A stretch of DNA of 64,000 nt from Candidatus Methanoperedenaceae archaeon (GTDB lineage Archaea; Halobacteriota; Methanosarcinia; Methanosarcinales; Methanoperedenaceae): the NCBI GenBank assembly GCA_963753595.1, contig CAVWCX010000001.1, positions 64,001 through 128,000 of the forward strand, given 5' to 3'. Under the pieces are notes generated by a model, which saw only the letters and a list, made by a program, of their open reading frames with translations, was not told where the DNA came from and made no database searches. The first letter of the stretch is position 1; each line of letters begins with the position of its first letter. Below, in pieces: positions 25,383-62,086 of the stretch. A program made the position numbers and the translations under genes.

Positions 25383-26090
25383 ATCGTAGAGGTTTCAATC
25401 GTACTTCCTGCTTATAACGAAGCGAAACGAATTGAAGGAACTGTTGAAAGAACGGCAGCAGCTCTATGCGAAATCACCTCATCTTTTGAAATAATAATAG
25501 CTGAGGATGGCGCCATTGACGGCACAGATAAAATATGTGAATCTCTTGCAAGAAAATATAATTTTGTGATGCATCTGCACTCGGATGAACGCCAGGGAAG
25601 GGGACGAGCCCTGAACCGGGCATTCAAGGCATCAAAAGGAGAAATCCTTGGATATATAGATGTAGACCTTGCAACTGATATGGATCATCTAAAAGAGTTG
25701 ATACAATACATCCGTGATGGATATGATTTTGCCACTGGCTCACGGATGCTTCCGGAAAGCAATGTCAAGCGGCCTTTAAAAAGAGGATTTGCAAGCAAGG
25801 GTTTCAATTACCTGACGCGCCTGGTGCTTGGTTCGAAACTCTATGACCACCAGTGCGGTTTCAAATCCTTCAGGCGCGAAGCCTTATTTTCGCTCATGGA
25901 TGATATCAAAGATACCCACTGGTTCTGGGATACCGAATTGTTCGTGAGGGCACAGCGCAAAGGATTCAAAGTAAAGGAATTTCCGGTTGTCTGGAAACAT
26001 GGCGGCACAACCAAAGTCAATCTTGTGAAGGATGTATTCGGAATGGGATCCCAGGTATTCAGGTTATGGTATGAATTCTTATGGGATTGA
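25383..26090 (+). CDS. GT2 dolichol-phosphate glycosyltransferase (AglD/DPG-synthase-like)
   Basis: Frame extends upstream of the called GTG to VEVSIVLPAYNE...IIIAEDG..DGT; YIDVDLATD, DHQCGFK, WFWDTE; apparent ATC start after GGGGGT. Confidence 0.88.
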   Translation: MVEVSIVLPAYNEAKRIEGTVERTAAALCEITSSFEIIIAEDGAIDGTDKICESLARKYNFVMHLHSDERQGRGRALNRAFKASKGEILGYIDVDLATDMDHLKELIQYIRDGYDFATGSRMLPESNVKRPLKRGFASKGFNYLTRLVLGSKLYDHQCGFKSFRREALFSLMDDIKDTHWFWDTELFVRAQRKGFKVKEFPVVWKHGGTTKVNLVKDVFGMGSQVFRLWYEFLWD

Positions 26091-43733: not shown

Positions 43734-45995
43734 ATGACAATCTTAAATAAAATCAAGCTGGATTCTAAGAGCCACATTTTCTTATTTTTAATACTTTTAA
43801 TCGGTCTTATTGTAAGGTTTTTTACTTTTTCCCAGGTATTTGAACAAGGCCGGATAGTGTTTCTTGAGACAGATCCATATTATCATATGTGGCGGGTATT
43901 TTCATATATTGAGATGTTCCCAAAAACATTCTTTTTTGATCCGTTTATTAATTATCCATACGGAGTTGTTGTGGGGTGGCCGCCCCTCTTTGATCAAATT
44001 ATCGCGCTTATATCTTTAATTGCCGGTCTTGGGAAACCTGGCATACATCTTGTTGAAACGATAGGAGTATTTATTCCTGTTATTTCAGGTATTTTCTCAA
44101 TAATTTCAGTATATTATATAACAAAAGAAATTTTTAATGAACGTATCGCCCTCTACAGTTCCCTTTTACTTGCAGTGATGCCGGCGCATGCCCAGATATC
44201 TTTTCTTGGATTTACAGACCATCATATCGCAGAAGTTCTAATTTCGGTTCTGGCTTATTTGTTTTTTATAAAATCAATAAAAAAAGAATCCTGTTTGTTT
44301 TCAATTTTATCCGGAATTATGATCGGATTATCTTTTTTAATATGGATTGGGGCACCGATATTCATCGGGATAATATTATCCTATATAGTCATTCAATTCG
44401 TTTTGGATAAAAAATCAAATATTAATTCTGATTATCTTCTGAAAACCGGTACAATTTCTTTTTTGACCGCATTTGTTATGATCATCTTTTTTTATCTCTG
44501 GACACCATGGCAAAAGGATATCCAGGCAGGTACGCTGTCATATTTTCAGCCAGTATATGTATTTTTATGTGCTATAATAGTACTTGTTTTTGGGATAACT
44601 TCCAGGATAATGAAGGATAAAAAATGGGTTTTATTTCCGATAATGATTTTAATTATGTTCACTTCCTTTTTTTCAATACTGGTATTTAGTTTTCCATCTT
44701 TCTATGATAATTTATTAAATGGCATAGGATATTTGCTCACGGATGCGCCTCTATTAAAACAAATAGTTGAGGCACAGCCGTTATTTTATACCTATGACGG
44801 GATTTTCCTGGGATGGCAATTCTTCAGTAACCCTGTGTGGTATTCATTTGCTTTTAGTTTTTATTTTGCGATCATCGGGCTTTTATTATTGTTATATTAC
44901 CATCGAACAGGAATTGATAAAGGAAGATTGTTTCTTGTAATATGGACATCGATAGTCCTTGTGCTTGCATTGTTCCAGAGACGCTTCACTTATACGCTGG
45001 CAGTGAATGTTGCGATATTGTCGGGATTTTTTATAGATAATATCACATTTAATATACGTAATATATATAAAACATATACATATAAGTCCATGGCTTTTAA
45101 TCTGAAATCGGGCCACATCGCTTTGTTAATTCTCATGGTTCTTTGTATTCCAAATTTAGTATTGGCATATAACATGGCACAGTCCCCGCCCAAACCTTCG
45201 GATGACTGGTATGAATCATTGATATGGTTAAGAGAAAACACTCCTGATCCGGGAAAAAGTCCTGAATATGGCATAATGACATGGTGGGATTACGGGAACT
45301 GGATCTTGTATATCTCAAAGCGCCCTGTTGTTGCTAATAATTTCCAGATTGGCGGGGACAGCGCTGCGAAGTTTTTTGTTGCGCCGGATGAGACTGCTGC
45401 AAATAAGATAATGGATATGCGAAAAGCAAGATATGTGATCCTTGATCACAGGATGGGCTTAAATAAGTTCAGGGAGGGAGATCAAGTCTTGTTAAGAGGT
45501 ACATTCTTTGCTATTGCAGGTTTTGCAGACGAGGATATTGCAATGTATTTAGACCGAAATAACCTTCCCAATCAAAATTTTGCCAATACCATGTATGCCA
45601 GGATGCACATATTTGACGGAAACGGGCTTGAATATTACAGGATGATTTACGAATCAAAAGAGACACATTATAACTTATTCGACAGGCCCACGAGAAATAT
45701 CAAAATATTTGAATACGTAAAAGGAGCAAAAATTACTGGAAAAGCATCATCAAATGCAACTGTTTTTATTTCAGGAAAAATAATTACAAACCAGGGACGC
45801 ATATTTGATTATTTAAAGGAAGTAAAAGCTGATGAAAAAGGATATTTTGAGTTCATTGTCCCGTATTCCAGAGAAGGTCCATATGAAACAACATTACTGA
45901 ATAGTTATAACATAAAATACGACAATTCAAATATTTCTATCAACGTATCAGAGAATGATGTCCTGAAGGGAAATATAATAAAGGTGAACTTATGA
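43734..45995 (+). CDS. aglB: Oligosaccharyltransferase AglB/STT3 paralog
   Basis: ETDPYYH, GFTDHH.AE, I.EAQPL, QRRF.Y, MTWWDYGNWI, R.VVANNFQ, KIFEYVKGA. Confidence 0.92.
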   Translation: MTILNKIKLDSKSHIFLFLILLIGLIVRFFTFSQVFEQGRIVFLETDPYYHMWRVFSYIEMFPKTFFFDPFINYPYGVVVGWPPLFDQIIALISLIAGLGKPGIHLVETIGVFIPVISGIFSIISVYYITKEIFNERIALYSSLLLAVMPAHAQISFLGFTDHHIAEVLISVLAYLFFIKSIKKESCLFSILSGIMIGLSFLIWIGAPIFIGIILSYIVIQFVLDKKSNINSDYLLKTGTISFLTAFVMIIFFYLWTPWQKDIQAGTLSYFQPVYVFLCAIIVLVFGITSRIMKDKKWVLFPIMILIMFTSFFSILVFSFPSFYDNLLNGIGYLLTDAPLLKQIVEAQPLFYTYDGIFLGWQFFSNPVWYSFAFSFYFAIIGLLLLLYYHRTGIDKGRLFLVIWTSIVLVLALFQRRFTYTLAVNVAILSGFFIDNITFNIRNIYKTYTYKSMAFNLKSGHIALLILMVLCIPNLVLAYNMAQSPPKPSDDWYESLIWLRENTPDPGKSPEYGIMTWWDYGNWILYISKRPVVANNFQIGGDSAAKFFVAPDETAANKIMDMRKARYVILDHRMGLNKFREGDQVLLRGTFFAIAGFADEDIAMYLDRNNLPNQNFANTMYARMHIFDGNGLEYYRMIYESKETHYNLFDRPTRNIKIFEYVKGAKITGKASSNATVFISGKIITNQGRIFDYLKEVKADEKGYFEFIVPYSREGPYETTLLNSYNIKYDNSNISINVSENDVLKGNIIKVNL

Positions 45996-47605
45996 AACCC
46001 ATATGCAAAATAATGATAATATTAATTATTTTTTATTCAAGCATTTTTCCGGTATTTGCCGAGGAGCCGGAATGGGTCGATCCCCAGGAAAAAACGATGA
46101 GAATGACAGAATCATTTACAAGAGAAGGCTATGTTATAGAAGCAACTGATTTTTATGATTATTCAGCATTGATAACGGTCTTTGATACAAAAGGAAACCT
46201 TGTAACAAGAAATGTGACTCGAATTGATGATTATTTTGTCGTTGATGACAGGTTAAATATTAGTATAATCAACCTTCAGGAAGTCAGGGGTAACATAGGA
46301 GCAAATCTCGGATTAAATGTATCTGTGGACCAGTGGGTGAAGATAAGAACAAGAGTGAAAGGAAGGCCTTCAATAAAATTATCAATCATCCCGAAAGGGA
46401 TCGAAATTAATAATAAGTCAATTGTCAGGCATACATATATTCCTGGCTCTGAAATCGCGGTAAATTTTTCAGTAAGGAACGAGGGTAAGGCCAGGCTAAA
46501 AGATATGATCTTAAAGATCAATACCTCGATGCCAGTGCTGTATGATGAAAAATTGAATTATGAAATACTTGAATTGGGCGCGGGAAACGAATCCGATCCG
46601 ATCACTGTCAGGTTTCAGGCACCGTACACAGGAGAGCGAAAGTCGATATCGATCATGGTAGAAGCAATTGGATATGATATCTATGGGAAGGCATATAGGG
46701 CAGCTGATTCAGCATTTATCGAGTTAATCCCTCCATTTGATAATAAAATCGATCTTAAAAAATATATTTCAGAAAAAGTATATATGGGTGACGTTGCCGT
46801 TGTTTCCATAAATATCAGGAACAATGGAAGTCAAAAATTAGATAATGTGAATTTAACTGACAGTCTTCCACCCGGGATCGAACCAATAGATACGAACCTT
46901 TCATGGAATTTTACTTTAGGGCCATTTGAACAAAAAACAATATCATATATGGTAAAACCCCAAAAACCCGGAATTTATTTCTTCTTACCGGGAAGTTCCA
47001 TTATTGAATATCAGGGCGTATTGGATTACAATAAGAAACCCATTAAATTGATCGTGGGCGGTCCTTATGTAGTTTTATTGAAATATGCAAGCTCCTATGA
47101 TATTTTCAAAGGCGATAATGTCAATGTAACGGTGGAAGCTAAAAACATGGGAGATGCCACAGCGATAGTAAAACTCAATGAAACTATCCCGGCGAATTAT
47201 TCCCTGACTTTCGGGAACCAAACATATGAGACAGTTTCAGATACTATGGTACTTCATCCCGGTATGTCGGGATCATTTTCTTATTTGCTTTTTGCATCTG
47301 GCACAGGAGGTTTTATTCTCCCGCCGGCAAAAGCAATAATTCTTGATAAGATCCTGTATAAGGATGAACGATATACACAAAGAGCCACTTCGGCTGAAGT
47401 GATAATAAAAGTCAGGGAGCCATTGAAAATGGAACTTTCCTCTTCCAAAATGACTTCAATACCGAAAAAATCCACCAGTCCTGAAAGTATTGAGACAAAT
47501 GTCCCATCTGAAACACCTAAATCTTCAGCTGGATTCGAGGGATATATTTTTATCATTTTCGTCCTAGTTATAGTGGTTATAAGAAAATTGAATTTCAGAA
47601 TTTGA
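45992..47605 (+). CDS. Multi Ig-like (BatD/DUF11-type) surface glycoprotein with PGF-CTERM-like tail
   Basis: Signal peptide, V.I.N.G...L.NV.LTDSLP.G repeats, Ser/Thr/Pro linker, AGFE-TM-RK. Confidence 0.75.
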   Translation: MKPICKIMIILIIFYSSIFPVFAEEPEWVDPQEKTMRMTESFTREGYVIEATDFYDYSALITVFDTKGNLVTRNVTRIDDYFVVDDRLNISIINLQEVRGNIGANLGLNVSVDQWVKIRTRVKGRPSIKLSIIPKGIEINNKSIVRHTYIPGSEIAVNFSVRNEGKARLKDMILKINTSMPVLYDEKLNYEILELGAGNESDPITVRFQAPYTGERKSISIMVEAIGYDIYGKAYRAADSAFIELIPPFDNKIDLKKYISEKVYMGDVAVVSINIRNNGSQKLDNVNLTDSLPPGIEPIDTNLSWNFTLGPFEQKTISYMVKPQKPGIYFFLPGSSIIEYQGVLDYNKKPIKLIVGGPYVVLLKYASSYDIFKGDNVNVTVEAKNMGDATAIVKLNETIPANYSLTFGNQTYETVSDTMVLHPGMSGSFSYLLFASGTGGFILPPAKAIILDKILYKDERYTQRATSAEVIIKVREPLKMELSSSKMTSIPKKSTSPESIETNVPSETPKSSAGFEGYIFIIFVLVIVVIRKLNFRI

Positions 47606-47625
47606 ATTACTAATGGGTTTCCTAC

Positions 47626-48300
47626 ATGTTGAAAAAATTATTTACAAAAAATAACAGGGAATATCGGTTAATAAAGACAACCTTGATAATATCTGTCTTA
47701 ATAATTTTTGTTTCTTCTCTTGCAATATCCGTAAATGCATACGAAAGACCCGAATATACGGATGGATTGACTGATAAATGGCATCCAGGCGCCTATTGTA
47801 TACCCTGTCATTATACCCTGTTGAGTACGGATAAAGCCCAATCGATTTCAAATGGGTGCAAATGCCATGATTACGTACCGAAAAATGCAGAAAATAAGTA
47901 TAAAGTTGATATGACAAAGATTTTCAATATCCATGAGGATATCGTATGCATAAGGTGCCATGTTGGTGTGAAGGAAGGGACCAACGTGACCGCGGCGGAT
48001 TTCCACAGGATAATGAACAAAGAGACATGCATGACATGCCATACTTATGAGAATGGCACGATCCAAAAGCCACTAAAAACGAAATGCTCCGACTGTCATT
48101 CAGGTGATCCGCATGTGGTTCACGGCAAAAGGCTTGAAAAAATGTGCGAGACATGTCATGGGGATTTTGCGAAAAACTATGTTGGGGGTAAAACAATTAG
48201 TCCCATATCGACTAAACCTGAAGTTGCTGTTAAGGAATACACAACAATAGGGCAGATTATCAGTAACTTAGTTGAGTCTTTAATGCAAATATTCAGGTGA
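47626..48300 (+). CDS. Secreted multiheme cytochrome c (5 CxxCH + 1 CxCH)
   Basis: CIPCH, CKCH, CIRCH, CMTCH, CSDCH, CETCH; PH.VH distal ligands; amphipathic C-terminal helix. Confidence 0.88.
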   Translation: MLKKLFTKNNREYRLIKTTLIISVLIIFVSSLAISVNAYERPEYTDGLTDKWHPGAYCIPCHYTLLSTDKAQSISNGCKCHDYVPKNAENKYKVDMTKIFNIHEDIVCIRCHVGVKEGTNVTAADFHRIMNKETCMTCHTYENGTIQKPLKTKCSDCHSGDPHVVHGKRLEKMCETCHGDFAKNYVGGKTISPISTKPEVAVKEYTTIGQIISNLVESLMQIFR

Positions 48301-48728
48301 ATATGAAATTAATTCTGGTGCTGTTTTTCATTTCAGTAATGATTTTCTCCGGCTGCATAGGAAATCCCACAAAACAAGTACCTGTAGTACATGTTAATAT
48401 CACTTTTGTGGAAAAAGAGGGTTTTTCGCAAGTGCAAAATTATAAAATAACCCAGGAGACGGTCAACTATCTTGGAAGGCCTAAAAAAACCCAGGCTGAA
48501 TCTTTCCCTGCCATAACTGCAAGAACGATGATAATGAAAGAAAAAAATAGTAGTATAGGGCCATGGGAAACTCTGTCCTATAATGGAAATGGGATTTATT
48601 CATTTAATATCGGATTTAAGGACGACAATTATCCTGCAGCCGGAGATAAAGTACATATTTCTATAATGGTCGTTGATAAAAAAGGGGATAGAATAGGATA
48701 TTTCGTGCAGGATATGGTTTGGGAATGA
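48297..48728 (+). CDS. Lipoprotein
   Basis: Lipobox FSGC; GTGA overlap with the cytochrome. Confidence 0.75.
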   Translation: MNMKLILVLFFISVMIFSGCIGNPTKQVPVVHVNITFVEKEGFSQVQNYKITQETVNYLGRPKKTQAESFPAITARTMIMKEKNSSIGPWETLSYNGNGIYSFNIGFKDDNYPAAGDKVHISIMVVDKKGDRIGYFVQDMVWE

Positions 48729-48853
48729 AATTGATACACTAAATATTGAGTATCCTGATATAATATTGAAATCATAAAGTATTTATGGCAATAAAAGAAA
48801 TAAAAGGGTAGTAAAGGTATGGATATTTGATTTAATAAAAGGTGGAAAGTCTT

Positions 48854-49536
48854 ATGAGTAACAAAATGATATTAATTGGGATTGCAATAGCAGCAATTGG
48901 GTTGGTTGCACTACCACAAACATTAGCATTATTTGCAGGACAGCATAACTTCTATGATAATATAGGCAATGGCGCTGCAGCTATTCCATGTGAGAAATGC
49001 CATGCGGATGTATTTTCAGAACTGAGCCAGCCCGGATCAGTAAATGCAGTTCATATGCGTCAGGGTTGTGAGGGATGCCATGTAACGACTGCTCCTACGA
49101 AAGAAGGGCTTGTGCAGGGTGGGAATTTAACGGATGATTTCCACGCAGCTGCATTACCTTTGTGTTTGGATTGCCATAGTGGCACAGGACCAGGAGCAGA
49201 TGCGAGATCGATACTTGAAGGTACTGTAGAAGCTCATACGGCATTTGCAAACCAGGCTAATGACTCTTTGCTCCTGCGGGGTTCTAATGAAGCATGTATT
49301 TCATGTCATACACATGTTGCGGTGGACATAAACTGGACAAAGGCTTATAAGATCAGCTTCAATGCCATGGAAAATGCAACAACTGGCCTTCATGAATGGA
49401 CTGTTGATAACTTCGCTACAGAAGGTACGGTCCAGATACAGACTACGGCAACAGGTCCGGTGAGATCAATAGTGCAACAGAACCAGTAGTATCTATTACA
49501 CCAGCACCACTAGGTTTTGATCCCAGCAATCCATGA
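48854..49536 (+). CDS. Secreted tetraheme cytochrome c, LFAGQH family (one-base frameshift at ~49443; called ORF stops at 49489)
   Basis: CEKCH, CEGCH, CLDCH, CISCH; the shifted frame gives YGNRSGE...NP*, matching YGNGSGE...TP* of the paralog at 59922; T-rich terminator follows 49536. Confidence 0.85.
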
Positions 49537-49580
49537 GTAAGTAGGAAAAATAACTTTTTTTCCTATTTTTATCTTTTTTT

Positions 49581-50306
49581 ATGTATATCCCTTTAAATGA
49601 TATACTGTTTCTTTTAATTCTTTTGGCATTTTTGATAATGGTATATAGAAGAATTATTTACAGCATTAGTTTTTCTGAGCCAATTATCCAAACCTTTAAA
49701 ACTTTTGACAGGAAGCATAGGATCAATGCTTATATTAAACAAATAAACCAAAGACCAGAAGAATCCCAGAAAGTCGTATTAAAAGAGCTATTTATTTTTA
49801 TATTTGCACTAATGATAATGTTCCTTTTTGCTTCAAAAGCAATTTTGTTTACAGCTGTGATATCAGGGAGCATGTCTCCCACCTTCGATAAGGATGATCT
49901 TGTCCTTATGCAGAATATAGACCGTACATACAAACCCGGGGACATAATAATGTTCGAGCGGCCAGATACTTCATTTCCTGTTGTACATAGAATAAAGCAG
50001 ATTACAGACAAAGGTATAAATACAGCAGGTGATGCCACGGATCAGGTGGACTGGTGGGAACTCGAAAAAGAAAAAATTCTCGGGAAAGCTATTATGATAC
50101 AGGGGAAACCAGTAGTTATAAAAGGATATGGTAAGTTCTTCATAATTGATGAACGTAACCAGGACTTTGGTCCAATGGGGCAGGATTACGGAAAATACTT
50201 TTTATTTTTCCAGATTATAAAGATTTATGGATATGTTATTGCAGTGTTTTCTTTATTTCTTTATATTTTTATGACATTAAGGCAAAAGCCATGGCAAAGT
50301 AGATAA
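49581..50306 (+). CDS. Archaeal/SipW-type signal peptidase I (S26B)
   Basis: VISGSMSPT (Ser), PGDIIMF, VVHRI (His), T.GD; extra TM helices. Confidence 0.88.
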   Translation: MYIPLNDILFLLILLAFLIMVYRRIIYSISFSEPIIQTFKTFDRKHRINAYIKQINQRPEESQKVVLKELFIFIFALMIMFLFASKAILFTAVISGSMSPTFDKDDLVLMQNIDRTYKPGDIIMFERPDTSFPVVHRIKQITDKGINTAGDATDQVDWWELEKEKILGKAIMIQGKPVVIKGYGKFFIIDERNQDFGPMGQDYGKYFLFFQIIKIYGYVIAVFSLFLYIFMTLRQKPWQSR

Positions 50307-50329
50307 TATTCTGAATGATAGGTGTATAA

Positions 50330-51895
50330 ATGGAAAAAAGGCATATCTTGCTTATCGTGGCGTTACTTTCTGCCATAGTATTCGTAATGCCAAATATTTA
50401 TTCTTTATTTGCAGGCCAGCACTGGTTTTATGATACTGGAGTGTCCTATTGCCTGAAATGCCATTCTGATATCAAACAGGAGCTTGATTCCCAATTCCAT
50501 CATACTTTTACATGCGAAAACTGCCACTCTATCAATACGAATTCAAATGCAACGCATGGAAATGTGGTTTCACCCAGATGCCTTGATTGCCATTCTAATC
50601 CCGGGCGTCTAGTGACGGATTCAAATGGAAATACATTCCTCACTCCTCTTGCATATGTTTTTGGAGAAAATGTAACAAATGCGGAATCACATAAGCCTTT
50701 GATTACAGGGGCCAATTCATCACCTCTTATGAAAGGTGAAAATGAAGCATGTTTTTCCTGCCATACCAGGAAATCGATCAGCATCAATATACGTTATGCA
50801 GATACATACAGTTTCAATTCCCGCAGGGCTGATAACGGCACATGGCAAATGTGGGATTATTCAAAAAATGCCGAAAATTCAGTAAATTTGATTATCCAGG
50901 CCAACGAATCTTCAGGAAAGCATTTGTTTTTATCATTAAATCAATTAAAATGTGAAAAATGCCATCCGAATACTGGAGACGAGCTCACAAGTTCCTCCCA
51001 TCATACATACTTTTCATGCAACTCCTGCCATCAGCTGTATTCGACATACCATGTATCAAGTATCCCCCCATGTCTTGAATGTCACGGCACAGAGCCAAAG
51101 ATGGTCACTGATATGCAAAAGAATACATATGTTGCATCTGCAGCTAAAGTCTATTCAGAAAATACGATAGGGGCAGATGCACATCTCCCGTTTGTCCTGG
51201 GCGCAAATTCAAGCAATTTATCTGCAGGCAGTAACATTGCCTGCTTTTCATGCCATTCCGGTTTAAATAATAAGATAATTTTTTCAAGACCGGAATATAT
51301 TGAATGGGATGTTGAAAATTCAGGCGGCACATGGACGATACAAAATCTTGCATTGGGAGAAACAAAGGAAGTGAAGGTTACAAAATATTCAGATGGAAAA
51401 TCCCATAATATCTCTATGGATACAGGTTGCATATCCTGCCACGATGACATAAGGCAGGCAGTCTCTAATGGCGGACATTCTAACGAGCAGTGGGGAATGA
51501 AACATAATTATTCCGATTATAGCGATATGAACTTTTATTGCAGGTCATGCCATGATCCATTTACTAAAGATAACTTTAATAATTCTCCATATCCAGCCTA
51601 TCCTTTTAACTCCATCAATCATGGTTCTATTAAAATACTATGTATGGATTGTCATGGCAGATCAGGAAGTTTGTCAGTAAGCTTCAATGGGATCATGAAG
51701 ATTCCATCTTACAACAGTACTTCCATGGGCAATATTGAGAGTTCGATCAGCCTCCAGCCGGATTTTATTCAATCGTACCTGTGCATAGCATGTAAGAACA
51801 CGGGGAATCCTGTTCCGAATACTTCATTACACTTTAAATTATATACTGAACCTGAGGTAAAGGTTTATGTCAATGGGACGCAACGATATCCGTAA
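50330..51895 (+). CDS. Secreted dodecaheme cytochrome c (11 CxxCH + CxxCK) made of three tandem LFAGQH-family tetraheme units
   Basis: CLKCH/CENCH/CLDCH/CFSCH; CEKCH/CNSCH/CLECH/CFSCH; CISCH/CRSCH/CMDCH/CIACK. Confidence 0.9.
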   Translation: MEKRHILLIVALLSAIVFVMPNIYSLFAGQHWFYDTGVSYCLKCHSDIKQELDSQFHHTFTCENCHSINTNSNATHGNVVSPRCLDCHSNPGRLVTDSNGNTFLTPLAYVFGENVTNAESHKPLITGANSSPLMKGENEACFSCHTRKSISINIRYADTYSFNSRRADNGTWQMWDYSKNAENSVNLIIQANESSGKHLFLSLNQLKCEKCHPNTGDELTSSSHHTYFSCNSCHQLYSTYHVSSIPPCLECHGTEPKMVTDMQKNTYVASAAKVYSENTIGADAHLPFVLGANSSNLSAGSNIACFSCHSGLNNKIIFSRPEYIEWDVENSGGTWTIQNLALGETKEVKVTKYSDGKSHNISMDTGCISCHDDIRQAVSNGGHSNEQWGMKHNYSDYSDMNFYCRSCHDPFTKDNFNNSPYPAYPFNSINHGSIKILCMDCHGRSGSLSVSFNGIMKIPSYNSTSMGNIESSISLQPDFIQSYLCIACKNTGNPVPNTSLHFKLYTEPEVKVYVNGTQRYP

Positions 51896-52877
51896 AAAAA
51901 TCAAGAACCCTTTACTTGATGTTAATGAAGATGTATCTGTCAGGCCTTTTGAGCATTATTCGTTCTTTGATAAAATAGGCGTTGCCAGTGCTTTGATCAT
52001 GTCGATGGCGATATTATTAATGTCAATCATTTCTTTTTATATTGATTTTGTAAAATCAAATTATCTTTATACATTGATAGATTTAATTATTTTTGTATTC
52101 TCTCTGGGAGCTGTATACTTTGTCTTAAATGCTTTCAAGAAAAGAGTGATCACTGACCTATTGATAGATACGGCATTCCAGGAAGGAGTTTATTCAAGAC
52201 TTGCGCCTTTGGTTGAAAATATAGCCAGGTCGCATGTAGATACAAATATTATTCTGGACAGGATGTCCAATATTGATTTGAAGGTCGAAAATATTTTAAA
52301 AGAAGGGTATGCAAGGGATATAAAATCAGGTGACGTTTTACAGGAGCCCATTGCTGTTGCAACCTCAATTAAATTCGCGATCAAATCGATTTTTTTAATA
52401 GTTGTGACAATGGCTGTTTTTATGTTCCTTTTAAATTTTAATCTCGCTGGTATTACTCCCTATGCTGTTCTTTTGGTATTTATCGCATGGTGGGGATTTA
52501 TAACAAACGAATATAATTTATGGAAGGAGTCTTCTGCCTGGGCAATGGTTTTTCTCCCAATACTTGTGATACCGGTAGCCGTCATGCTTTTAGCAAATCT
52601 TTTGAATTATAACGTATTAATGGCGATACTATATGTATCTGTTGGATTATATACATTTGTTTATTATATCTGGGCTGTATATGCATCAACAGGAAGCCTG
52701 CCATTAATCGCGACAAGAAAACAAGAACAGGTAGAAAGTGAATTTTTCGCTTTACAACAAAAAGGAATGCTGAAAAAACTTTTTGATTTATCAATTTCAA
52801 GAGTTGAACAAAAATTGCAGGAAGACAAGAAAAAGCAGGAATCAGATTATATCTGGAAAAAATCTTTGAAGGACTGA
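51867..52877 (+). CDS. Polytopic membrane protein (~6 TM) of unknown function
   Basis: Overlaps the dodecaheme gene; 2+4 TM helices with a cytoplasmic coiled segment. Confidence 0.75.
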   Translation: MSMGRNDIRKKIKNPLLDVNEDVSVRPFEHYSFFDKIGVASALIMSMAILLMSIISFYIDFVKSNYLYTLIDLIIFVFSLGAVYFVLNAFKKRVITDLLIDTAFQEGVYSRLAPLVENIARSHVDTNIILDRMSNIDLKVENILKEGYARDIKSGDVLQEPIAVATSIKFAIKSIFLIVVTMAVFMFLLNFNLAGITPYAVLLVFIAWWGFITNEYNLWKESSAWAMVFLPILVIPVAVMLLANLLNYNVLMAILYVSVGLYTFVYYIWAVYASTGSLPLIATRKQEQVESEFFALQQKGMLKKLFDLSISRVEQKLQEDKKKQESDYIWKKSLKD

Positions 52878-53433: not shown

Positions 53434-54957
53434 TCATATAAAAGTAGTTGCAGTCTCTTCCACCAAATAAATAGCTACACCTTTTCGTGTGAGGTAATGG
53501 AAACGATCAGGGGAATCAAACATGATCCCTCCTCCATCGTAGATAAAGATAATAGAATCATATCTCTTTCCGTCTTTCCCATCCACAACAACGAATTGCC
53601 CGTCATTGTTTGAAGCCCCATAGACCAGATGCTTGTTATCCGGGCTGAAAAGTAAAGAACCTTCTATAATATCATCATATTGTTTTCCTATATTGCCGTC
53701 AATAACATCTTTTAAACCATCATCATTTCCAAAATCTTCAAAATTCATGGGGACAGAGCTAAATGAAATCACGCCGCTATAAGTTGATTTTTTCTCAGTT
53801 GTTTCCTCTATCACGAACCATTTATCTTTTTCTCTTGCCGCATAAGCTACCCGTTTGCTGTCAGGGCTAAATACTGGAGTATATTTCAGGATATCATCAT
53901 ACCGCTGTCCCTCTTTTCCATCCACAACTACGAACCATTTATCGCCTTCTCTTGCTGCGTAAGCGATCCTTTTTCCATCAGGACTGAAGGTGATACTATG
54001 TTTCAATATGCTGCCGTATATTTTTTCCTCTTTTCCATCTACTACTACAAACCACCCATTTCCCTCTCTTGCTGCATAAGCGATCTGTTTGCTGTCCGGG
54101 CTGAAGATGGGAGTGTATTTCAGGATTTCATCATATGTTTTCCCTTCCTCTTCATTTTCTACAACAAACCACTTTCCGTCCTTTTTTGCTACATAAGCCG
54201 TCTTATTGCTGTCAGGACTGAACATGAGGGTGTTTGTCAGTATGCTATCATATTGCTGTCCCTCTTTTCCATCCAATACCACAAACAATTTGCCCTCTTC
54301 TCCTGCGACATAGGCTACTCGATTGCTGTCAGGACTAAAGACAGGGTAAAAACTGCTTTGAAATTTCTTATCTTCTTTTCCATCCACAACCACGAACCAT
54401 TTATCTTCCTCCCTTGCTTCATAGGCTATCCTTTCGCTGTCCGGGCTAAAGACAGGCATTTTGATGCTATCGTATTGTTTTTCTTCTTTTCCATCTACGA
54501 CCACAAACCATTTACTGCTATCATTTGCCACATAAGCCTGGCGCCTGCCATCAGGACTGAAAACCAGGTTTCTAACATTTTCATAATGAGTTTCTTCTTT
54601 TCCATTAAGTACTACAAACCACCTCTCATTCTCTTTTGCGGCATAAGCCAGGCTTTTGCTATCCGGGCTAAAAATGAAACCATTTATATCATCGTATTTT
54701 TTTTCATTTTCTCCATTCAGGACAATGAATTTCTTTTCTCCTTCAGTTTCAACATAAACAAATTGCATACTATCCGGACTTACCTTGAAAGTCTCCGGAA
54801 CCCCCGAAAAAAAACCGAATTTAACAATAAGTTTTTCTGAAATCACCCTGCCGGCTATTTCTTCATTATTTTGCGCTCTTGATGGAGTATCCCGCGAAAT
54901 ACAACCACTTGCCAATATTATTATAATTAGAATAAAAGTAATTATGTATTTTTTCAT
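53434..54957 (-). CDS. TolB/PD40-like beta-propeller lipoprotein
   Basis: Lipobox ASGC; ~9 tandem FSPD.KR.AY.A....KWFVVVDGKE...YD.I repeats. Confidence 0.85.
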   Translation of the reverse strand: MKKYIITFILIIIILASGCISRDTPSRAQNNEEIAGRVISEKLIVKFGFFSGVPETFKVSPDSMQFVYVETEGEKKFIVLNGENEKKYDDINGFIFSPDSKSLAYAAKENERWFVVLNGKEETHYENVRNLVFSPDGRRQAYVANDSSKWFVVVDGKEEKQYDSIKMPVFSPDSERIAYEAREEDKWFVVVDGKEDKKFQSSFYPVFSPDSNRVAYVAGEEGKLFVVLDGKEGQQYDSILTNTLMFSPDSNKTAYVAKKDGKWFVVENEEEGKTYDEILKYTPIFSPDSKQIAYAAREGNGWFVVVDGKEEKIYGSILKHSITFSPDGKRIAYAAREGDKWFVVVDGKEGQRYDDILKYTPVFSPDSKRVAYAAREKDKWFVIEETTEKKSTYSGVISFSSVPMNFEDFGNDDGLKDVIDGNIGKQYDDIIEGSLLFSPDNKHLVYGASNNDGQFVVVDGKDGKRYDSIIFIYDGGGIMFDSPDRFHYLTRKGVAIYLVEETATTFI

Positions 54958-55082
54958 ATTTAATTTAAACAAATTCACTTTTAATAAAGCCTTTAAGTAT
55001 ATAGATTTGGCTGAGTAATCAACCTGTATTGATTGAATGTTTTAAGCCTTATTTTCAAAATCTTTATAAGTAAATCAGTATA

Positions 55083-56372
55083 TTGTTGTGCGTGGAATTT
55101 AAACTGACTATCCTAATTATGGTATTTATTCTCTTTGCCGTTCCTTCCCTGGCTGTTGATAATGGATATGCCAGGATAGTTTATAATGTAAGGGGATTGC
55201 AGGATTATGATCTGCACTGGAACGACAGGTTCCCTCCCGGGAGCACTTTAAGAATTTATGCAGAGGCAAACGGCGTGAATCATAAGCGCCAGGTGGCAGT
55301 TGATTACATTTTTATTATTAAGGATCCAAATAATAATGTTATAGATACGGCATTATATAGCAATAGATATGAAGATTACAGGGAAAATGATTTCATGACC
55401 TATTCAAGGAATGTGCCGCAAGAGTGGGATGATGGGGTTTATACGGCTGATATACATATTTTTGACCTGTTGAATGAAACACTAATGGATACATATTATC
55501 GTGAACTTATAATGTCATATTTGAATGAGAGTGACAGGCCTGATCTTCCGGTAATGAATCGAAGCAATGCATCAGTTCTGCCGGAACAGCACATGATAAT
55601 TAAGAAAACCTTTTTTATTGACAGGTATGCAAATAAATATCCCGTTGACAGATTCAGAATAGAAAAAATCATGCTTGATAGAACAAGTGTTGCGCCAAAT
55701 ATGCCAGTTGCGGTTAGCGCCAATGTGATCAATACTTTTTATGATAAAGGTTCAACATCTATTGATTTGTTATTAGATAATAAAGTAATTAACAAAACTA
55801 CGCTGGAAATTGAAAGTTATAGTTCCAGCCAGGCTATTTTCACAGTTTCCACCGAAATTATCGGGAACCATACTGTAGAAATTATACCGACTGGAATGAA
55901 TACTATTGGAATAAATCTGTCCGGTGTCTTCATGGTGAGCGCCGAAAAAGAGATAGAAAAACCTACGGAATTTGTTTACCAGGATATACAGATAGATAAA
56001 TTAAGTGTCGAGCCAAACGGGACCGTGATTATCGCTGTGACAGTAAAAAATACAGGAAAGGAAGGAATCCAGTCTGTGGAGTTGTATATTAATGATGTCC
56101 TGGAAGAAGAAAGACAGGTAGATCTAAACTTTTCGGAAATTAAAGATATTTTATTCAATGTGACCAAAAAAGATCTGGGCGCATACAGGGTTACAGTTGG
56201 CAAATCAACTCTTAGCAAGGTTTTTTTTGTGGAATCAAGTACACCTGTTCCTTTTGTAACAGCCGGACCCAAAATAGAAAAAAAGCCGCAGCTTAAGGTC
56301 GTGATCGGCCTATCAGTTATTGTTATATTGATATATCTTTTAAGAATATATTTAAAAAATAAATGGAAGTGA
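55083..56372 (+). CDS. CARDB/Ig-domain membrane-anchored surface protein
   Basis: Signal peptide, V.V.NTG..G...V.L.IN, G.Y.V.VG, C-terminal TM + basic tail. Confidence 0.75.
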   Translation: MLCVEFKLTILIMVFILFAVPSLAVDNGYARIVYNVRGLQDYDLHWNDRFPPGSTLRIYAEANGVNHKRQVAVDYIFIIKDPNNNVIDTALYSNRYEDYRENDFMTYSRNVPQEWDDGVYTADIHIFDLLNETLMDTYYRELIMSYLNESDRPDLPVMNRSNASVLPEQHMIIKKTFFIDRYANKYPVDRFRIEKIMLDRTSVAPNMPVAVSANVINTFYDKGSTSIDLLLDNKVINKTTLEIESYSSSQAIFTVSTEIIGNHTVEIIPTGMNTIGINLSGVFMVSAEKEIEKPTEFVYQDIQIDKLSVEPNGTVIIAVTVKNTGKEGIQSVELYINDVLEEERQVDLNFSEIKDILFNVTKKDLGAYRVTVGKSTLSKVFFVESSTPVPFVTAGPKIEKKPQLKVVIGLSVIVILIYLLRIYLKNKWK

Positions 56373-56376
56373 TAAA

Positions 56377-57114
56377 ATGGTAGCAAGAATCATTGCCATA
56401 GCATCGGGAAAAGGCGGTGTCGGTAAAACGACTATCGCTTTGAACTTGGGATTTGCTATGGCATCATTAAAAAAGAATGTCCTGGTCATAGACACTGACG
56501 TATCTCTTCCAAATCTGGATCTATATACAGGACTTGAAAAACCATTAATTACTCTTCTTGAGGTATTGAATGGCTCAGCAAATATCCAGAGCGCGATATA
56601 CTCAATCCAGATGGGGCTGAACATCCTGCCATGCGGTTCTTCGATTGAAGCTTTACGCGGTGCAGATATTGACAAATTAGGAGATATTATCTCAGAATTA
56701 AAAAACAGCGAATTTGATTTTATAATTCTGGATGTTCCTGCAGGTCTTTCCAAGTTCAGTTTATTGCCCATGACATATTCCGATGAGGTTATACTTATTG
56801 TCAATCCGGACCCGGCTTCCATATCAGATGCCCGGAAGGTAAGAACAGTATCCGGGCTTACTGATATGAAGATCACAGGCATAATTGTGAATAAATTTAA
56901 AAAGAACAATTATGAGGACATTGGAATAAAATTAGGACTGCCAGTTATCGGGGTGGTACCTGTGGATGATGCTGTCGTTAAATCCAGGGATTCAAGAAAA
57001 CCTGTAATATTACTGAAACCAAAATCTGCTCCCGCAAAAGCATTAATGCAAATAGCAAGAAAAGTATGCGGGATCCCTGAGAAAAAAAGTATTTTAGCGA
57101 GATTATTAGGATAA
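56377..57114 (+). CDS. minD: MinD-family ATPase
   Basis: ASGKGGVGKTT, IDTD...PNL, ILDVPAG, amphipathic MTS KKSILARLLG. Confidence 0.88.
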   Translation: MVARIIAIASGKGGVGKTTIALNLGFAMASLKKNVLVIDTDVSLPNLDLYTGLEKPLITLLEVLNGSANIQSAIYSIQMGLNILPCGSSIEALRGADIDKLGDIISELKNSEFDFIILDVPAGLSKFSLLPMTYSDEVILIVNPDPASISDARKVRTVSGLTDMKITGIIVNKFKKNNYEDIGIKLGLPVIGVVPVDDAVVKSRDSRKPVILLKPKSAPAKALMQIARKVCGIPEKKSILARLLG

Positions 57115-57732: not shown

Positions 57733-57783
57733 TTTTCAAAAAAGACAAACAGACTGCAGATAAGCGTATTATTGACACTTTCG

Positions 57784-57847
57784 GCCAACATTATCTTAAC
57801 GGCGCCGGGGTTGCGACCCCAGACCCCTGCGGTGCGCCGCCGTTGGC
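57784..57847. repeat. GC-rich palindromic intergenic element
   Basis: GCCAAC...GTTGGC and AACGGCG...CGCCGTT enclosing GGGGTTGCGACCCC. Confidence 0.5.
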
Positions 57848-57894
57848 GGATTATAACATTAACAATACCTGTAATATTTCTAAGTCAAAGACCA

Positions 57895-59637
57895 ATGTAT
57901 AAAAAAATTGTTAAATTATTGGAATCGAACCAAATTCCGTTATCAATATTTTTCATTTCATTATTTGTATTTCTCAGTTTTGCAGGCACACGTATGCTAT
58001 TTTCAGATGAAGGGATAATCGTAAGCCAGTTCTATAATTTTATACATGGTTCTTTAGATTTACAAACGGCCAAAGTGAATGTGGAAAGGGGAATATATAC
58101 GACTGTTGAAAATCATATATATGGAAGATTCAGTTATTCATTGCTTATATTATCTTTACCTGTATATATTATATTAAAAAATATAGATTATTTTTATGGT
58201 GCGCATTTATTTCTTCTGCAGATATGGGCTTTAAGCGGCGGGATATGTGTTTATCTTCTCACAAAAAACTGGAAAATAAAGAATGCGGCATTAGGTGGGG
58301 TTGTATCTTATTTCATATTAATAATGGTCAATCTGCTATCATTTGATCCTATTTATTTTCCTAAATGGGGGGAAATTATATCAATTGAATTTACTAATAT
58401 TCTAATCTCTTCTTTTTTGGTTTTAATGGTATATTTCTTATTCAAGAATCTATTTAATAATAAAATCGCTATCTTCGCGTCTCTTTTTGTTATATTCGCA
58501 ACGCCCATATCCTTTTATTCAATTACGTTGAAGCATCATTCTCTTGCTCTATTATTAACTGTATTGGCATTTTATTTTTTTTATAAATACCAGGAAAAAA
58601 AAGAAAATAAGTTTATTTATTATGCTTATCTATTAGCAGGACTTTGCATCTGGACTAGAATTGCAGAGGGTGCAGCACTTCTGTTGTCCCTCCTTATAAT
58701 AGATATAGTATTTTCCAGGCGAAGCATCAAACATATTGCCTTTGTCTCAATTATTATTCTGGTCTCACTTATCCCATTTTTCATTTTCAATCAATTGATA
58801 CTGGGGAATCCGTTTTCGATCATGGAATTACGCCCCTTAAGTGATATGCCCATGAAAATGGAGATTGAAAAAAATATGATCGTGCTAAGTGAAAGTTCGG
58901 TAAAAGCCAGGCAGGTAGAACTTCTGAATAATCTTGGCTTTATCTGGAATCCAGGGATCAAGACTGCCTTTTTGGACATTATGTCGTATATTTCGATTCG
59001 AAAAATGGGAAACACGTTTGGCCTATTCTTAATAAGTCCATTCTTGATAATCGCGCTTGCGTTTGTTATAGATCGGATAAAAAAGAAAATCAAGTTAAAT
59101 GCAACAGATAAATTATTGGGACTATACGCCATAATATTTATTTTAATACATAAAAATTACCTTAAATTAATAATTACTGATACACCAGTAGTTCTCGAAT
59201 ACAGGTATTTACTTATTATGTATATAGTCCTTCTTTATTTTGGGCTTAGAATAGATAAAGTCGGGGATCTTATTGAAAATAACTATAAGAAAATAGTACA
59301 GTTATACGCAGCCGCAGTAATAATACTAATTTTATATTTTATTAATATTTTTCCTCCCCCCTTCATGAATTTATACTATTCTTTAGCGTTGATCACTTCA
59401 ATCATTTTATTGATTTCATTATCGATGAGTATTTTAATTGAGAATAAAAAATCTTTTGCTGATTTATTGGATAAAATTACATTATTTTTCATCGCATTGT
59501 CACTTGCGCAAGCTTCCATATTGCTGCTTTTTTATTACTGGGTTGTTAGTATTACCTACATTTCGCCATCACAAAATTATACTGTAGTGCCAATTATTGG
59601 GAGTATTTTGAAATGGATGTACCAGGCACTTTTGTGA
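57895..59637 (+). CDS. Polytopic GT-C/PMT-like membrane glycosyltransferase candidate
   Basis: FSDEG in the first loop, many TMs, FATPI.FYS...KHH, WTR..EG, EYRYL; start moved to ATG 57895. Confidence 0.6.
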   Translation: MYKKIVKLLESNQIPLSIFFISLFVFLSFAGTRMLFSDEGIIVSQFYNFIHGSLDLQTAKVNVERGIYTTVENHIYGRFSYSLLILSLPVYIILKNIDYFYGAHLFLLQIWALSGGICVYLLTKNWKIKNAALGGVVSYFILIMVNLLSFDPIYFPKWGEIISIEFTNILISSFLVLMVYFLFKNLFNNKIAIFASLFVIFATPISFYSITLKHHSLALLLTVLAFYFFYKYQEKKENKFIYYAYLLAGLCIWTRIAEGAALLLSLLIIDIVFSRRSIKHIAFVSIIILVSLIPFFIFNQLILGNPFSIMELRPLSDMPMKMEIEKNMIVLSESSVKARQVELLNNLGFIWNPGIKTAFLDIMSYISIRKMGNTFGLFLISPFLIIALAFVIDRIKKKIKLNATDKLLGLYAIIFILIHKNYLKLIITDTPVVLEYRYLLIMYIVLLYFGLRIDKVGDLIENNYKKIVQLYAAAVIILILYFINIFPPPFMNLYYSLALITSIILLISLSMSILIENKKSFADLLDKITLFFIALSLAQASILLLFYYWVVSITYISPSQNYTVVPIIGSILKWMYQALL

Positions 59638-59921
59638 ATTTCCAGGTTAATGTTTAATCATTTTATTAAAAAACGTTCTTAAAATAATGGATAGGATAGG
59701 GAACTTGCAGCCTGATACTATTTATCATGATTAATTGAAATTAATGAATCGTAAAGTATATATGCTGTAAACTCATATCCTAATTATACCCAAATTGACA
59801 CCAAATTGGGAAAATGGATAGGATAGGAGCGATAGCAAAACGAAGATTGTGTTTGCTTGATTCTTATTCTTAACAAACCAAATTGGATTTAGGGTTAATA
59901 AAGATAGGATGTGAAAAATAT

Positions 59922-61181
59922 ATGAACGCAAAATTTACTTTAGCCATAATTGCGTTAGTTGGAATAGGCGTGTTCGCCCTGCCATCAACCATGTCGTTGT
60001 TCGCAGGCCAGCACTCGTTCTATAACATTGACGCAACAGGCAACCAGGTCCCGTGTGTGAAATGCCACGGTGATGTGAAAGCAGAATTGGGATCAAATGC
60101 AAATACAGTTGCAGCCAATGGACCCCTGACAGCAGGACCACACGCAGCATTTAAGTGCGAGTACTGCCACAGAATAGAACAGGGTGCTTCCAGCGGTGAC
60201 AATGCAGTTGCAATAGTTCCATACGAAAATGCGACAGGAGCAATTATAAGGGCAATTGCAATACCAGTATCAGACATGGAAGCAGGTAATTTCCCAACGG
60301 GAATTACGGGTGCTATGCTATTTACTAGCAGCAGTACAACTCTTAATGGTACAAAATTACAATTCGGTAAGGGTGCTATCAGTGCAGCTACAGCCGATGC
60401 AACATTAGAAGTAGCTCCCAGACAAGATTGGACAATAATGGCATCATATGATGCAATTACTGGCTTACCCAAGGATACAAACGCATCCACAATGTATGGT
60501 GGAATTGACCCATCGAAGATAAACGTCACTATAAATACTGCTAGACCATACGTTAGTCTTGGTTTCTTGAATGCAGGTTCACAGGCAGTCAACCCGGGCA
60601 GCAAATATCATGCAGCATCACTTGTATCATGCATGGAATGCCACGGTGGCGAAGAACCACTTGGTCACTATACCAGAGTTACAAGCGAAACGAGATGTTC
60701 TGACTGTCACTACGGTTACAACCCAGTTCCAGGCGCTAGATGGACTCAGCTCGCAGCAGGCGGCTTCGGACTTACAACATCCGCAAATGATACTGGCACA
60801 TCAGAAGCCCATAACGCATGGGTAAAAACCGATGACGGTATAAACAGATTCGGCGGACAACAGGGCAAGGAAGCAAATAACGGTGCATGTATTGGATGCC
60901 ATACCCACGTAGCAGTAGACATTGCATTCAATAAGGGCTACAAGCTCTCATTCACTGCAACCGAGGCAGCAACCGGTTCTTATACTGTTTCCGATGCAAA
61001 AGTTGAGGGAACAGTTCACGTTGACATATACGGCAACGGTTCTGGCGAAACCTTCGGTGTGGGCGACAAGTCCTATACCTGGACACCAGAGACAACCCTG
61101 TATCTCAATGGTAATGGCACAGTTATCAGCGGTCTCAATGGAGACTCCAGCGACAGCGCAACAGCTCTTACAACCCCGTAA
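59922..61181 (+). CDS. Secreted pentaheme cytochrome c, LFAGQH family, with a large heme-free insert
   Basis: LPSTMSLFAGQHSFY, CVKCH, CEYCH, CMECH, CSDCH, ACIGCHTHVAVDI; GGATGTGA RBS before ATG 59922. Confidence 0.9.
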   Translation: MNAKFTLAIIALVGIGVFALPSTMSLFAGQHSFYNIDATGNQVPCVKCHGDVKAELGSNANTVAANGPLTAGPHAAFKCEYCHRIEQGASSGDNAVAIVPYENATGAIIRAIAIPVSDMEAGNFPTGITGAMLFTSSSTTLNGTKLQFGKGAISAATADATLEVAPRQDWTIMASYDAITGLPKDTNASTMYGGIDPSKINVTINTARPYVSLGFLNAGSQAVNPGSKYHAASLVSCMECHGGEEPLGHYTRVTSETRCSDCHYGYNPVPGARWTQLAAGGFGLTTSANDTGTSEAHNAWVKTDDGINRFGGQQGKEANNGACIGCHTHVAVDIAFNKGYKLSFTATEAATGSYTVSDAKVEGTVHVDIYGNGSGETFGVGDKSYTWTPETTLYLNGNGTVISGLNGDSSDSATALTTP

Positions 61182-61428: not shown

Positions 61429-62082
61429 TTACACTCCACCTTTATATGCCCCTTCAATTGTTTTCATGTTTTCAATCATTCTTCTTCCGGCCTGGGTCAG
61501 CATGTATACCTTCTCGCTGTCTTGCTCAATAACATTATATGATTTCAGGATACGAAGATGAAAGCTGAGTTTTGTGGCATCATCTATCTTAAGCATGTTT
61601 TTAATCTCTGTGAACTTGAGTTTACCTGCTTTATTGAGAAGTTTCAGGGTGTTTTTTCTTATTGGATTTGAAATCGCCTTAATTAAATCAGATTCAAGGA
61701 GTTGTGGATATTTATTGATCTCTGCCGTTGCTAGAATTATCCTTATCTTTGTCTGTACCTCGTCTATCTTAAATGGTTTCGTTATATAATCCGACGCTCC
61801 TGCTTTTATTGCATCCACAGCATTTTCAATTGTCCCGAATGCTGTAATTATTATTACGTTTGCCCCGGGTTTGATATGTTTTATCTCCATTAAGACATCC
61901 ATTCCCCCCATGACTGGCATAATCAGATCAGTCAAAATAACATCAAATTCTTTTTTCCTGATTTTTTCAAGCCCAACCTGGCCATTCTCGGCAGACTCTA
62001 CATTATATCCCTCATCTGTTAAAATTTCTACTAATCCATCCCGCATTTTCTGTTCGTCTTCTATAACTAGTATATTTTTCAT
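61429..62082 (-). CDS. Response regulator with receiver + ArsR-like winged-helix output
   Basis: VIEDE, TDLIMP, ITAFG, DYITKPF; KAISNPIR...LKFTEI...KLSFHLRIL...Y.LT.AG. Confidence 0.9.
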   Translation of the reverse strand: MKNILVIEDEQKMRDGLVEILTDEGYNVESAENGQVGLEKIRKKEFDVILTDLIMPVMGGMDVLMEIKHIKPGANVIIITAFGTIENAVDAIKAGASDYITKPFKIDEVQTKIRIILATAEINKYPQLLESDLIKAISNPIRKNTLKLLNKAGKLKFTEIKNMLKIDDATKLSFHLRILKSYNVIEQDSEKVYMLTQAGRRMIENMKTIEGAYKGGV

Positions 62083-62086
62083 ATTG

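Follow-up and report, generated by a model that had tools for sequence, protein, structure and literature searches.

The stretch of DNA analysed here (64,000 nucleotides, hereafter the window, corresponding to positions 64,001 to 128,000 of contig C1 of a Candidatus Methanoperedenaceae archaeon, a methane oxidiser) carries at 49581-50306 a gene for a signal peptidase of 241 amino acids (aa) that is set between two genes for multiheme cytochromes. The peptidase open reading frame (ORF) begins 92 bp after that of a 215-aa cytochrome and ends 24 bp before that of a 521-aa cytochrome, and all three belong to a co-directional cluster of eight genes spanning 43734-52877, in which adjacent genes overlap or lie at most 114 bp apart. 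The original prediction for this locus had a Ser-His S26B peptidase sandwiched between two paralogs with an LFAGQH motif, and this is borne out both by the positions of the ORFs and by the two N-termini, which read ...ALPQTLA/LFAGQHNFYD in the 215-aa protein and ...VMPNIYS/LFAGQHWFYD in the 521-aa protein (the slash marks the predicted cleavage site).

The peptidase and the flanking cytochromes

The product of 49581-50306 passes the NCBIfam model TIGR02228 'signal peptidase I, archaeal' with 58.8 bits (cut-off 51.85) and Pfam Peptidase_S26 with 27.0 bits (cut-off 22.9), and human SEC11A and SEC11C align to it through the SGSM.P and VHR motifs. Its active-site motifs are of the Ser/His type with no Lys, S97 lying in SGSMSP, H136 in VVHR and D151 and D157 in the GD...D box; S97, M98, P100, H136, R137, G150, D151 and D157 are invariant in 23 aligned peptidases of the same long type. 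Ser97, His136 and Asp151/Asp157 are taken here to be catalytic, an assignment carried over from work on Sec11 and the archaeal enzymes, and by its sequence the ORF encodes a paralogue of Sec11, the type I signal peptidase of archaea, in which the catalytic residues are intact. The long type is set apart by its layout, in which (with helices read by eye from the sequence) an extra N-terminal helix, a basic linker and a second helix precede the catalytic domain, and a C-terminal extension with the conserved pattern GKPVV.K..G.YFILD...YG.EY.F leads into a C-terminal helix. The original prediction called the peptidase 'SipW-like'; that it is a SipW orthologue was rejected, since the SipW equivalog model NF046067 scores only 33.4 bits against a cut-off of 190.

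Three Sec11 genes were found in the source genome, encoding proteins of 241, 228 and 193 aa. The second, also of the long type, lies ~19 kb downstream, just past the window, in a similar cytochrome cassette, while the third is found on contig 37 in unrelated surroundings. That the 241-aa peptidase might be the only Sec11 of the genome, which would have spoken against a dedicated role, is thereby ruled out, and because there are three such genes it is not the housekeeping copy. A separate short Sec11 in unrelated surroundings was present in all five of the other genomes checked, measuring 164-170 aa in four of them and being a 303-aa ORF in G032. In a maximum-likelihood tree of 51 Sec11 sequences, from which six rows had been left out (five duplicates and one truncated sequence), six housekeeping proteins of 164-193 aa formed a clade with support of 100/96. 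The 43 long-type sequences, a group drawn by length and C-terminal extension after a quick tree had been viewed, fell on one side of a branch with support of 86/91 that was recovered in 91% of bootstrap trees, and two long-branch sequences stood outside both groups. A separation of the peptidase from housekeeping Sec11 is thus seen in the phylogeny.

A further Sec11 lineage was encountered in an Archaeoglobi-type genome, where a third Sec11 of 287 aa (locus L116, G099:C1:1472459-1475908) falls outside the housekeeping and long-type groups. It directly follows the genes of two small secreted proteins, one of which has ...HTAAFFYDIEK near its N-terminus, and no cytochrome was found within 10 kb; this enzyme may serve some other filament as a private peptidase of its own.

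The flanking cytochromes belong to a family with a structurally characterised member. AvECN, the conductive extracellular cytochrome nanowire (ECN) of Archaeoglobus veneficus, was reportedly described by Baquero et al. in Cell in 2023 (PDB 8E5G). The 215-aa cytochrome matches the subunit 8e5g_A in phmmer with E 1.3e-27 over residues 7-121 and 124-196, and the subunit begins LPSTTS/LFLGQHMWY, the same motif as that of the 215-aa protein. The 521-aa cytochrome matches 8e5g_A only weakly (E 9.9e-8); it is 36% identical to the 215-aa protein over residues 5-188 and contains a second ECN-like stretch. On this evidence the 215-aa cytochrome is clearly a homologue of the solved filament subunit, and the earlier suggestion of a heme wire was right by homology. 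An alignment of the 215-aa family has G20, P25, F31, G33, H35, Y38, H101 and H132 invariant. In alignments of 21 and 58 members the four CxxCH motifs, Pro-5, Phe+2, Gly+4 and His+6 (numbered from the cleavage site) are invariant or nearly so, as are three more His, the first of which lies between motifs 1 and 2 while the other two precede motifs 3 and 4, respectively. Together with His+6 there are therefore exactly four candidates for the four distal heme ligands, and AvECN has the same four extra His as well as the four CxxCH and the matching N-terminal motif; it is, however, a solved filament, whereas the Methanoperedens protein is known here from its gene alone. Database relatives of the 215-aa cytochrome were mostly from Candidatus Methanoperedens, and a homologue that is 29% identical, ECN-Mv, is named in 'Ca. 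M. vercellensis' in the part of a 2026 paper drawn on here (PMC13748539).

Structure prediction contributed little. AlphaFold2 models were poor both for the 215-aa protein (pLDDT 53.6, 21 alignment rows) and for the protein identical to 8e5g_A (59.2, 58 rows), and a complex of two mature 215-aa copies with four hemes, run without controls, scored 0.00. The PDB entry 8E5G, as reached through fold searches, comprises 220 of 262 residues with residue 34 onwards included, which fits the loss of a 26-residue signal peptide but leaves aside whether residues 27-33 belong to the model.

Cleavage region and pairing across genomes

Conservation around the predicted cleavage site was assessed for the family members of the fetched loci, whose N-termini gave 123 distinct stretches; these were anchored on the His, which is therefore 100% by construction. 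Upstream of the site, Pro was found at -5 in 87%, Thr at -3 in 75% and Ser or Ala at -1 in 95%. Downstream, Leu occupied +1 in 80%, Phe +2 in 91%, Gly +4 in 93% and Gln +5 in 85%, followed by Trp or Phe at +8 in 92% and Tyr at +9 in 82%. The unusual conservation on both sides of the site that had been remarked on in the two flanking proteins thus goes beyond chance and is a property of the family. The motif originally written for them, T.A/S-LFAGQH.FY, stood in part: LFAGQH.FY is common to both, but Thr at -3 is found only in the 215-aa protein, the 521-aa protein having Ile. Among 14 informative N-termini of 6-heme cytochromes from the same loci there was no conserved cleavage region and the signal-peptide ends were unrelated; these proteins retain a Trp-His before the first heme motif. 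It is the positions -5, -3 and -1 alone that speak for recognition by a peptidase, because heme binding cannot explain conservation upstream of the site. No second conserved cleavage site was seen in the precursors, the only canonical small-residue site being the conserved one.

The distribution of the two partners was examined in 401 sampled genomes of the phylum, searched with one profile for the cytochrome (E <=1e-8) and one for the long-type peptidase (E <=1e-30). The cytochrome was detected in 64 and the peptidase in 59, with 57 genomes having both, 7 the cytochrome only, 2 the peptidase only and 335 neither. The corresponding counts were 23, 1, 2 and 38 in family f6 and 22, 3, 0 and 29 in family f13. 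Both peptidase-only genomes are fragmented (230 and 320 contigs), and the other members of their genera do have the cytochrome. Of the seven cytochrome-only genomes, five are assemblies that are fragmented or incomplete and whose congeners have the peptidase, and the remaining two have weak cytochrome matches (E 1e-16 and 8e-10). Each positive genome has exactly one long-type peptidase, apart from the source genome with two. The genome encoding a protein identical to 8e5g_A over 262/262 residues (G165) has a single long-type peptidase, located ~1.57 Mb from the nanowire genes; only 16 bp separate it from a gene homologous to that of the 336-aa membrane protein discussed below. The pairing therefore holds without linkage in the organism of the known filament.

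Studies of gene order showed a wide range of linkage. One survey covered 53 genomes of the Methanoperedenaceae, with 30 loci inspected in flanks of ~1.5 kb, and found a peptidase match in 45 of the 53. Cytochromes with LF.GQH lay on both sides in 11 of the 12 listed loci with at least 47% peptidase identity, and the twelfth, cut by a contig end, had one on its remaining side; in one divergent locus the flanking cytochromes carried a degenerate motif. Across the phylum, a long-type peptidase was present in 12 of 40 cytochrome-centred regions (32 genomes), at most 46 bp from a family cytochrome in 8 of the 12 and 0.9-7.9 kb away in the other 4. The order peptidase, ECN of ~270 aa, ECN-like protein of ~430 aa, with overlapping gene ends, was frequent in the tight loci. 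Regions centred on the peptidase in other genomes contained a family cytochrome in 5 of 16 cases, and a search of genome contigs with the single peptidase returned 3 close relatives and one spurious match. The tie between the peptidase and the LF.GQH cytochromes that was first read from one locus is thus recovered both as conserved adjacency and at the level of genomes, the cytochrome being present in 57 of the 59 that are peptidase-positive.

A second gene travels with the peptidase. The 336-aa membrane protein encoded at the end of the cluster has no Pfam or NCBIfam match; it matches the product of the gene beside the peptidase in genome G125 (BLASTP E 2e-22, 27% identity). An iterative search of the fetched loci, 60 of them distinct, placed a homologue no more than 2.3 kb from the peptidase in 37, and in several of the other 23 the flanks are too short to judge. 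The protein is read, from these gene positions, as a probable part of the peptidase module.

The gene cluster and its surroundings

The features of the cluster are collected in Table 1, together with a further ECN-like paralogue of the window. The first two genes of the cluster overlap by 4 bp, and the 537-aa DUF11/CARDB protein encoded by the second has a C-terminal hydrophobic anchor and 15 N-glycosylation sequons. The 224-aa cytochrome has an ordinary signal peptide and is without the LF.GQH motif.

Table 1. Features of the cluster and of one further cytochrome gene, in window coordinates (a slash marks the predicted cleavage site)
Feature	Coordinates	Strand	Remarks
AglB/STT3 oligosaccharyltransferase	43734..45995	+	first cluster gene; TIGR04154 583 bits (cut-off 450); Pfam AglB_core-like, AglB_L1, STT3
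537-aa secreted DUF11/CARDB-repeat protein	45992..47605	+	Pfam DUF11 33.2 bits, BatD, bMG10
224-aa multiheme cytochrome	47626..48300	+	5 CxxCH and 1 CxCH; Pfam Cytochrom_c3_2, Cytochrom_CIII
143-aa lipoprotein-like protein	48297..48728	+	no Pfam or NCBIfam match
215-aa tetraheme cytochrome, homologue of AvECN subunit	48842..49489	+	4 CxxCH; phmmer against 8e5g_A
LFAGQHNFY, residues 30-38 of 215-aa cytochrome	48929..48955	+	directly follows predicted site TLA/L
Long-type Sec11/S26B signal peptidase, 241 aa	49581..50306	+	TIGR02228, Pfam Peptidase_S26
521-aa cytochrome with ECN-like N-terminal module	50330..51895	+	11 CxxCH, 13 sequons; similarity to 215-aa protein
LFAGQHWFY, residues 26-34 of 521-aa cytochrome	50405..50431	+	follows predicted site IYS/L
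336-aa polytopic membrane protein	51867..52877	+	~6 helices by eye; no known family
432-aa ECN-like paralogue	59883..61181	+	5 CxxCH; MS/LFAGQHSFY; Pfam cytochrome matches

The sequon N-x-S/T is abundant in the secreted proteins of the cluster, with 4 in the 215-aa cytochrome in addition to the 13 and 15 of the 521-aa and DUF11 proteins, and a PMT_2-type glycosyltransferase-like membrane protein (57772-59637) and a family-2 glycosyltransferase (25566-26087) are also encoded in the window. The AvECN filament carries extra densities, which are likened to the N-glycan densities of OmcZ2-Mv in the available part of the 2026 paper (PMC13748539).

Immediately past the downstream end of the cluster, a 514-aa lipoprotein-like protein encoded on the opposite strand (53434-54978) has PD40/WD40-like beta-propeller repeats and scores below threshold against the TmcD family (160 bits, cut-off 440). 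At 55083-56372 the window encodes a CARDB-like secreted protein of 429 aa that has a helix at its C-terminus, and a ParA/MinD-type ATPase (56377-57114) comes next. A response regulator and a PAS histidine kinase (61429-63790), divergently oriented, are flanked by two near-identical ECN-like paralogues with 5 CxxCH, the 432-aa protein of the window (59883-61181) and a 433-aa protein at C1:128271-129572, both with MS/LFAGQHSFYNID; the kinase and regulator may together control the cytochrome genes.

The second cassette lies at C1:129963-142003, 2-14 kb past the right end of the window. It begins with a 6-heme cytochrome, a 149-aa protein (C1:130536-130985) that is the counterpart of the 143-aa lipoprotein-like protein, a 324-aa ECN-like cytochrome (LS/LFSGGHSFY) and a 491-aa protein similar to the 429-aa CARDB-like one. 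The 491-aa gene precedes that of the 228-aa long-type peptidase, which is followed by two cytochromes with degenerate motifs (FVSSDHQ and FIVGDHQFY) and a 2092-aa ORF with two CxxCH.

Interpretation and relation to known systems

The reading that best accommodates these observations, held at a probability of about 0.7, is that the long-type Sec11 is a peptidase dedicated to the maturation of AvECN-family cytochromes, probably working together with the 6-helix membrane protein. A functional pairing of the long-type peptidase with the family has good support. The precursors would be exported by a Sec-type signal peptide ending in the fixed region (A/V)LP-x-T-x-(S/A) / L-F-x-G-Q-H-x-(W/F)-Y, and the peptidase, whose active site lies on the outside of the membrane, would cut after the Ser or Ala to leave Leu-Phe-x-Gly-Gln-His as the new N-terminus. 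Peptidase and membrane protein might together form a membrane platform from which the matured subunit is released into the growing filament.

Several caveats weigh against this reading. The single long-type branch is only moderately supported (86/91) and the groups were drawn after a quick tree. Heme ligation could by itself account for the residues conserved downstream of the cleavage site. The co-occurrence counts overstate independence because the genomes are kin, and cytochrome-rich lineages have many other genes in common. A subtype of the peptidase of 266-298 aa showed no CxxCH ORF in flanks of ~1.4 kb at any of 17 Methanoperedens loci, and wider views of four such loci each showed a 6-heme cytochrome at a distance of ~4.1 kb, joined in one of the four by a family cytochrome. 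Finally, no partner was found within ~7-10 kb in 28 of the 40 cytochrome-centred and 11 of the 16 peptidase-centred regions, although one of the latter 11 (L146) spans only 2 kb. The 266-298 aa subtype (loci L028-L045 and L128-L131) also has a longer, multi-helix N-terminus and a membrane-protein homologue ~1.1 kb away.

Such loci give some weight to a general signal peptidase serving many multiheme cytochromes and surface proteins, with the motif conserved for heme binding only, an interpretation that in essence matches Chadwick et al. 2022 in the part of that paper drawn on here (PMC9012536). Many long-type peptidases have no family cytochrome next to them, the 266-298 aa subtype is nearer to the 6-heme cytochrome, and the cluster at 43734-52877 encodes further secreted proteins. 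However, the fixed cleavage region is found only in the AvECN family, the tightly linked peptidases abut members of that family specifically, and the only two peptidase-positive genomes without the family are the fragmented ones whose congeners have it, so that a general role is unlikely.

It is more improbable still that the housekeeping Sec11 removes the signal peptide and that the long type has some other role in biogenesis, such as precursor holding, quality control or a second cut; in that case the additional helices and the extension at the C-terminus would form a scaffold with the 6-helix membrane protein. The added N-terminal helix and linker and the conserved extension with its helix would suit such a role, as would the persistence of the membrane-protein pairing where no cytochrome is near (e.g. 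G165, G316 and G157), but every catalytic residue is invariant in the long-type sequences, and no second conserved site for such a cut was seen, the sole canonical small-residue site of the precursor being the one already described. A chance neighbourhood, in which a duplicated and redundant Sec11 has nothing particular to do with the cytochromes, draws on the frequency of multiple Sec11 genes in archaeal genomes and on operon membership being judged from sequence only, and can be dismissed as very improbable, since the sandwich persists within the Methanoperedenaceae at peptidase identities as low as 51% and recurs in other families of the phylum, and since the co-occurrence counts had already disfavoured it.

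An extension of the dedicated-peptidase reading couples cleavage to assembly, and is put forward only tentatively, as something rather doubtful. Cleavage by the private peptidase would be a licensing step, the freed N-terminal His becoming an inter-subunit heme ligand so that processing and polymerisation are one event. Until cut, the signal peptide would tether the heme-loaded subunit to the membrane and bury Leu-Phe-x-Gly-Gln-His; the cut would free an N-terminal arm whose invariant His is one of three distal ligands given to a neighbour. The larger paralogues (521, 432 and 324 aa) would fit the same socket as base or branch subunits feeding electrons. The +6 His lies 14 residues before the first CxxCH, a place that in c7-type cytochromes is taken by an intramolecular ligand; it could equally well be such a ligand, which weighs against an inter-subunit role. 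In the parts of the published accounts available here, three of the four AvECN hemes receive their distal His from another subunit (PMC12203936), and the number of inter-subunit His across the known filaments is 0, 1 or 3 (10.1101/2023.06.12.544705). The N-terminal His, as one of four conserved candidates, stands a fair chance of belonging to these three, and ligation of a neighbouring subunit by the +6 His is plausible.

Signal peptidases that belong to filament systems are already known. In Bacillus subtilis the SipW peptidase is found with the filament proteins TasA and TapA. Archaeal loci of the TasA-like AbpX have their own class I signal peptidase (PMC12518558), as do the Tafi pili with TafD (PMC12337348), according to the portions of these papers drawn on. 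All three resemble the present locus in that a second signal peptidase of the endoplasmic reticulum (ER) type lies beside the subunits of an extracellular filament, and in that the subunits are Sec-exported and polymerise with no known chaperone. The substrates here are, however, heme proteins, and no TasA-type (camelysin) family was among the Pfam and NCBIfam matches of either flanking cytochrome. Nor is AvECN known to use donor-strand exchange. A protease is also encoded beside the nanowire cytochrome OmcZ, where the subtilisin-like OzpA matures the nanowires and is needed for polymerisation (PMC13748539, citing Kai et al. 2021); as far as the available part of that source goes, OzpA differs in belonging to another protease class and in removing a C-terminal inhibitory part and not a signal peptide.

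Close to the present locus is also the report by Chadwick et al. 2022 (PMC9012536) of a signal peptidase and an unannotated '8x TMH' (transmembrane helix) protein in cytochrome c clusters of anaerobic methanotrophic archaea (ANME) and of Geoglobus and Ferroglobus, for which a role in maturation was proposed. The likeness lies in a multiheme-cytochrome cluster that includes a signal peptidase and, beside it, a polytopic membrane protein without annotation. In the sections of that paper drawn on, the ANME pair is tied to CcmF2/MHC-B clusters and to cytochromes generally, with no substrate motif given; the genes are likened by description, eight helices being stated there against ~6 counted by eye here. 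Among the matches listed (120 of 307), database homologues of the long type are named 'signal peptidase I', 'Peptidase S24-like protein' or 'hypothetical protein' and come from Methanophagales, Syntropharchaeales, Methanosarcinales and Methanoperedens. A literature search, which did not extend to Baquero 2023 or the Chadwick supplements, found no peptidase tied to the AvECN family, only Chadwick 2022 and papers on other filaments. Filament-dedicated signal peptidases, and signal peptidases in ANME cytochrome clusters, are thus already known. What is added here is that the putative substrate family is that of a solved nanowire, that the cleavage motif is fixed, that the long type is separated from housekeeping Sec11, and that the pairing is near one-to-one at the level of genomes, including the one encoding 8e5g_A.

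The physiological roles of archaeal ECN filaments are described as unresolved in the part of the 2026 Methanoperedens study consulted (PMC13748539). The present analysis adds two candidate genes for nanowire biogenesis, a Sec11 paralogue, which 57 of the 64 cytochrome-positive genomes possess, and a membrane protein that belongs to no known family. The organism of the solved filament has both, and they accompany a defined cleavage motif, which makes the question a testable one. The peptidase, which goes with these cytochromes throughout the phylum, is a strong candidate for a part of the machinery by which archaeal cytochrome filaments mature. Heterologous production of archaeal nanowires would be helped by such machinery, and the gene pair would serve as a simple genomic marker for predicting which uncultured archaea make nanowires.

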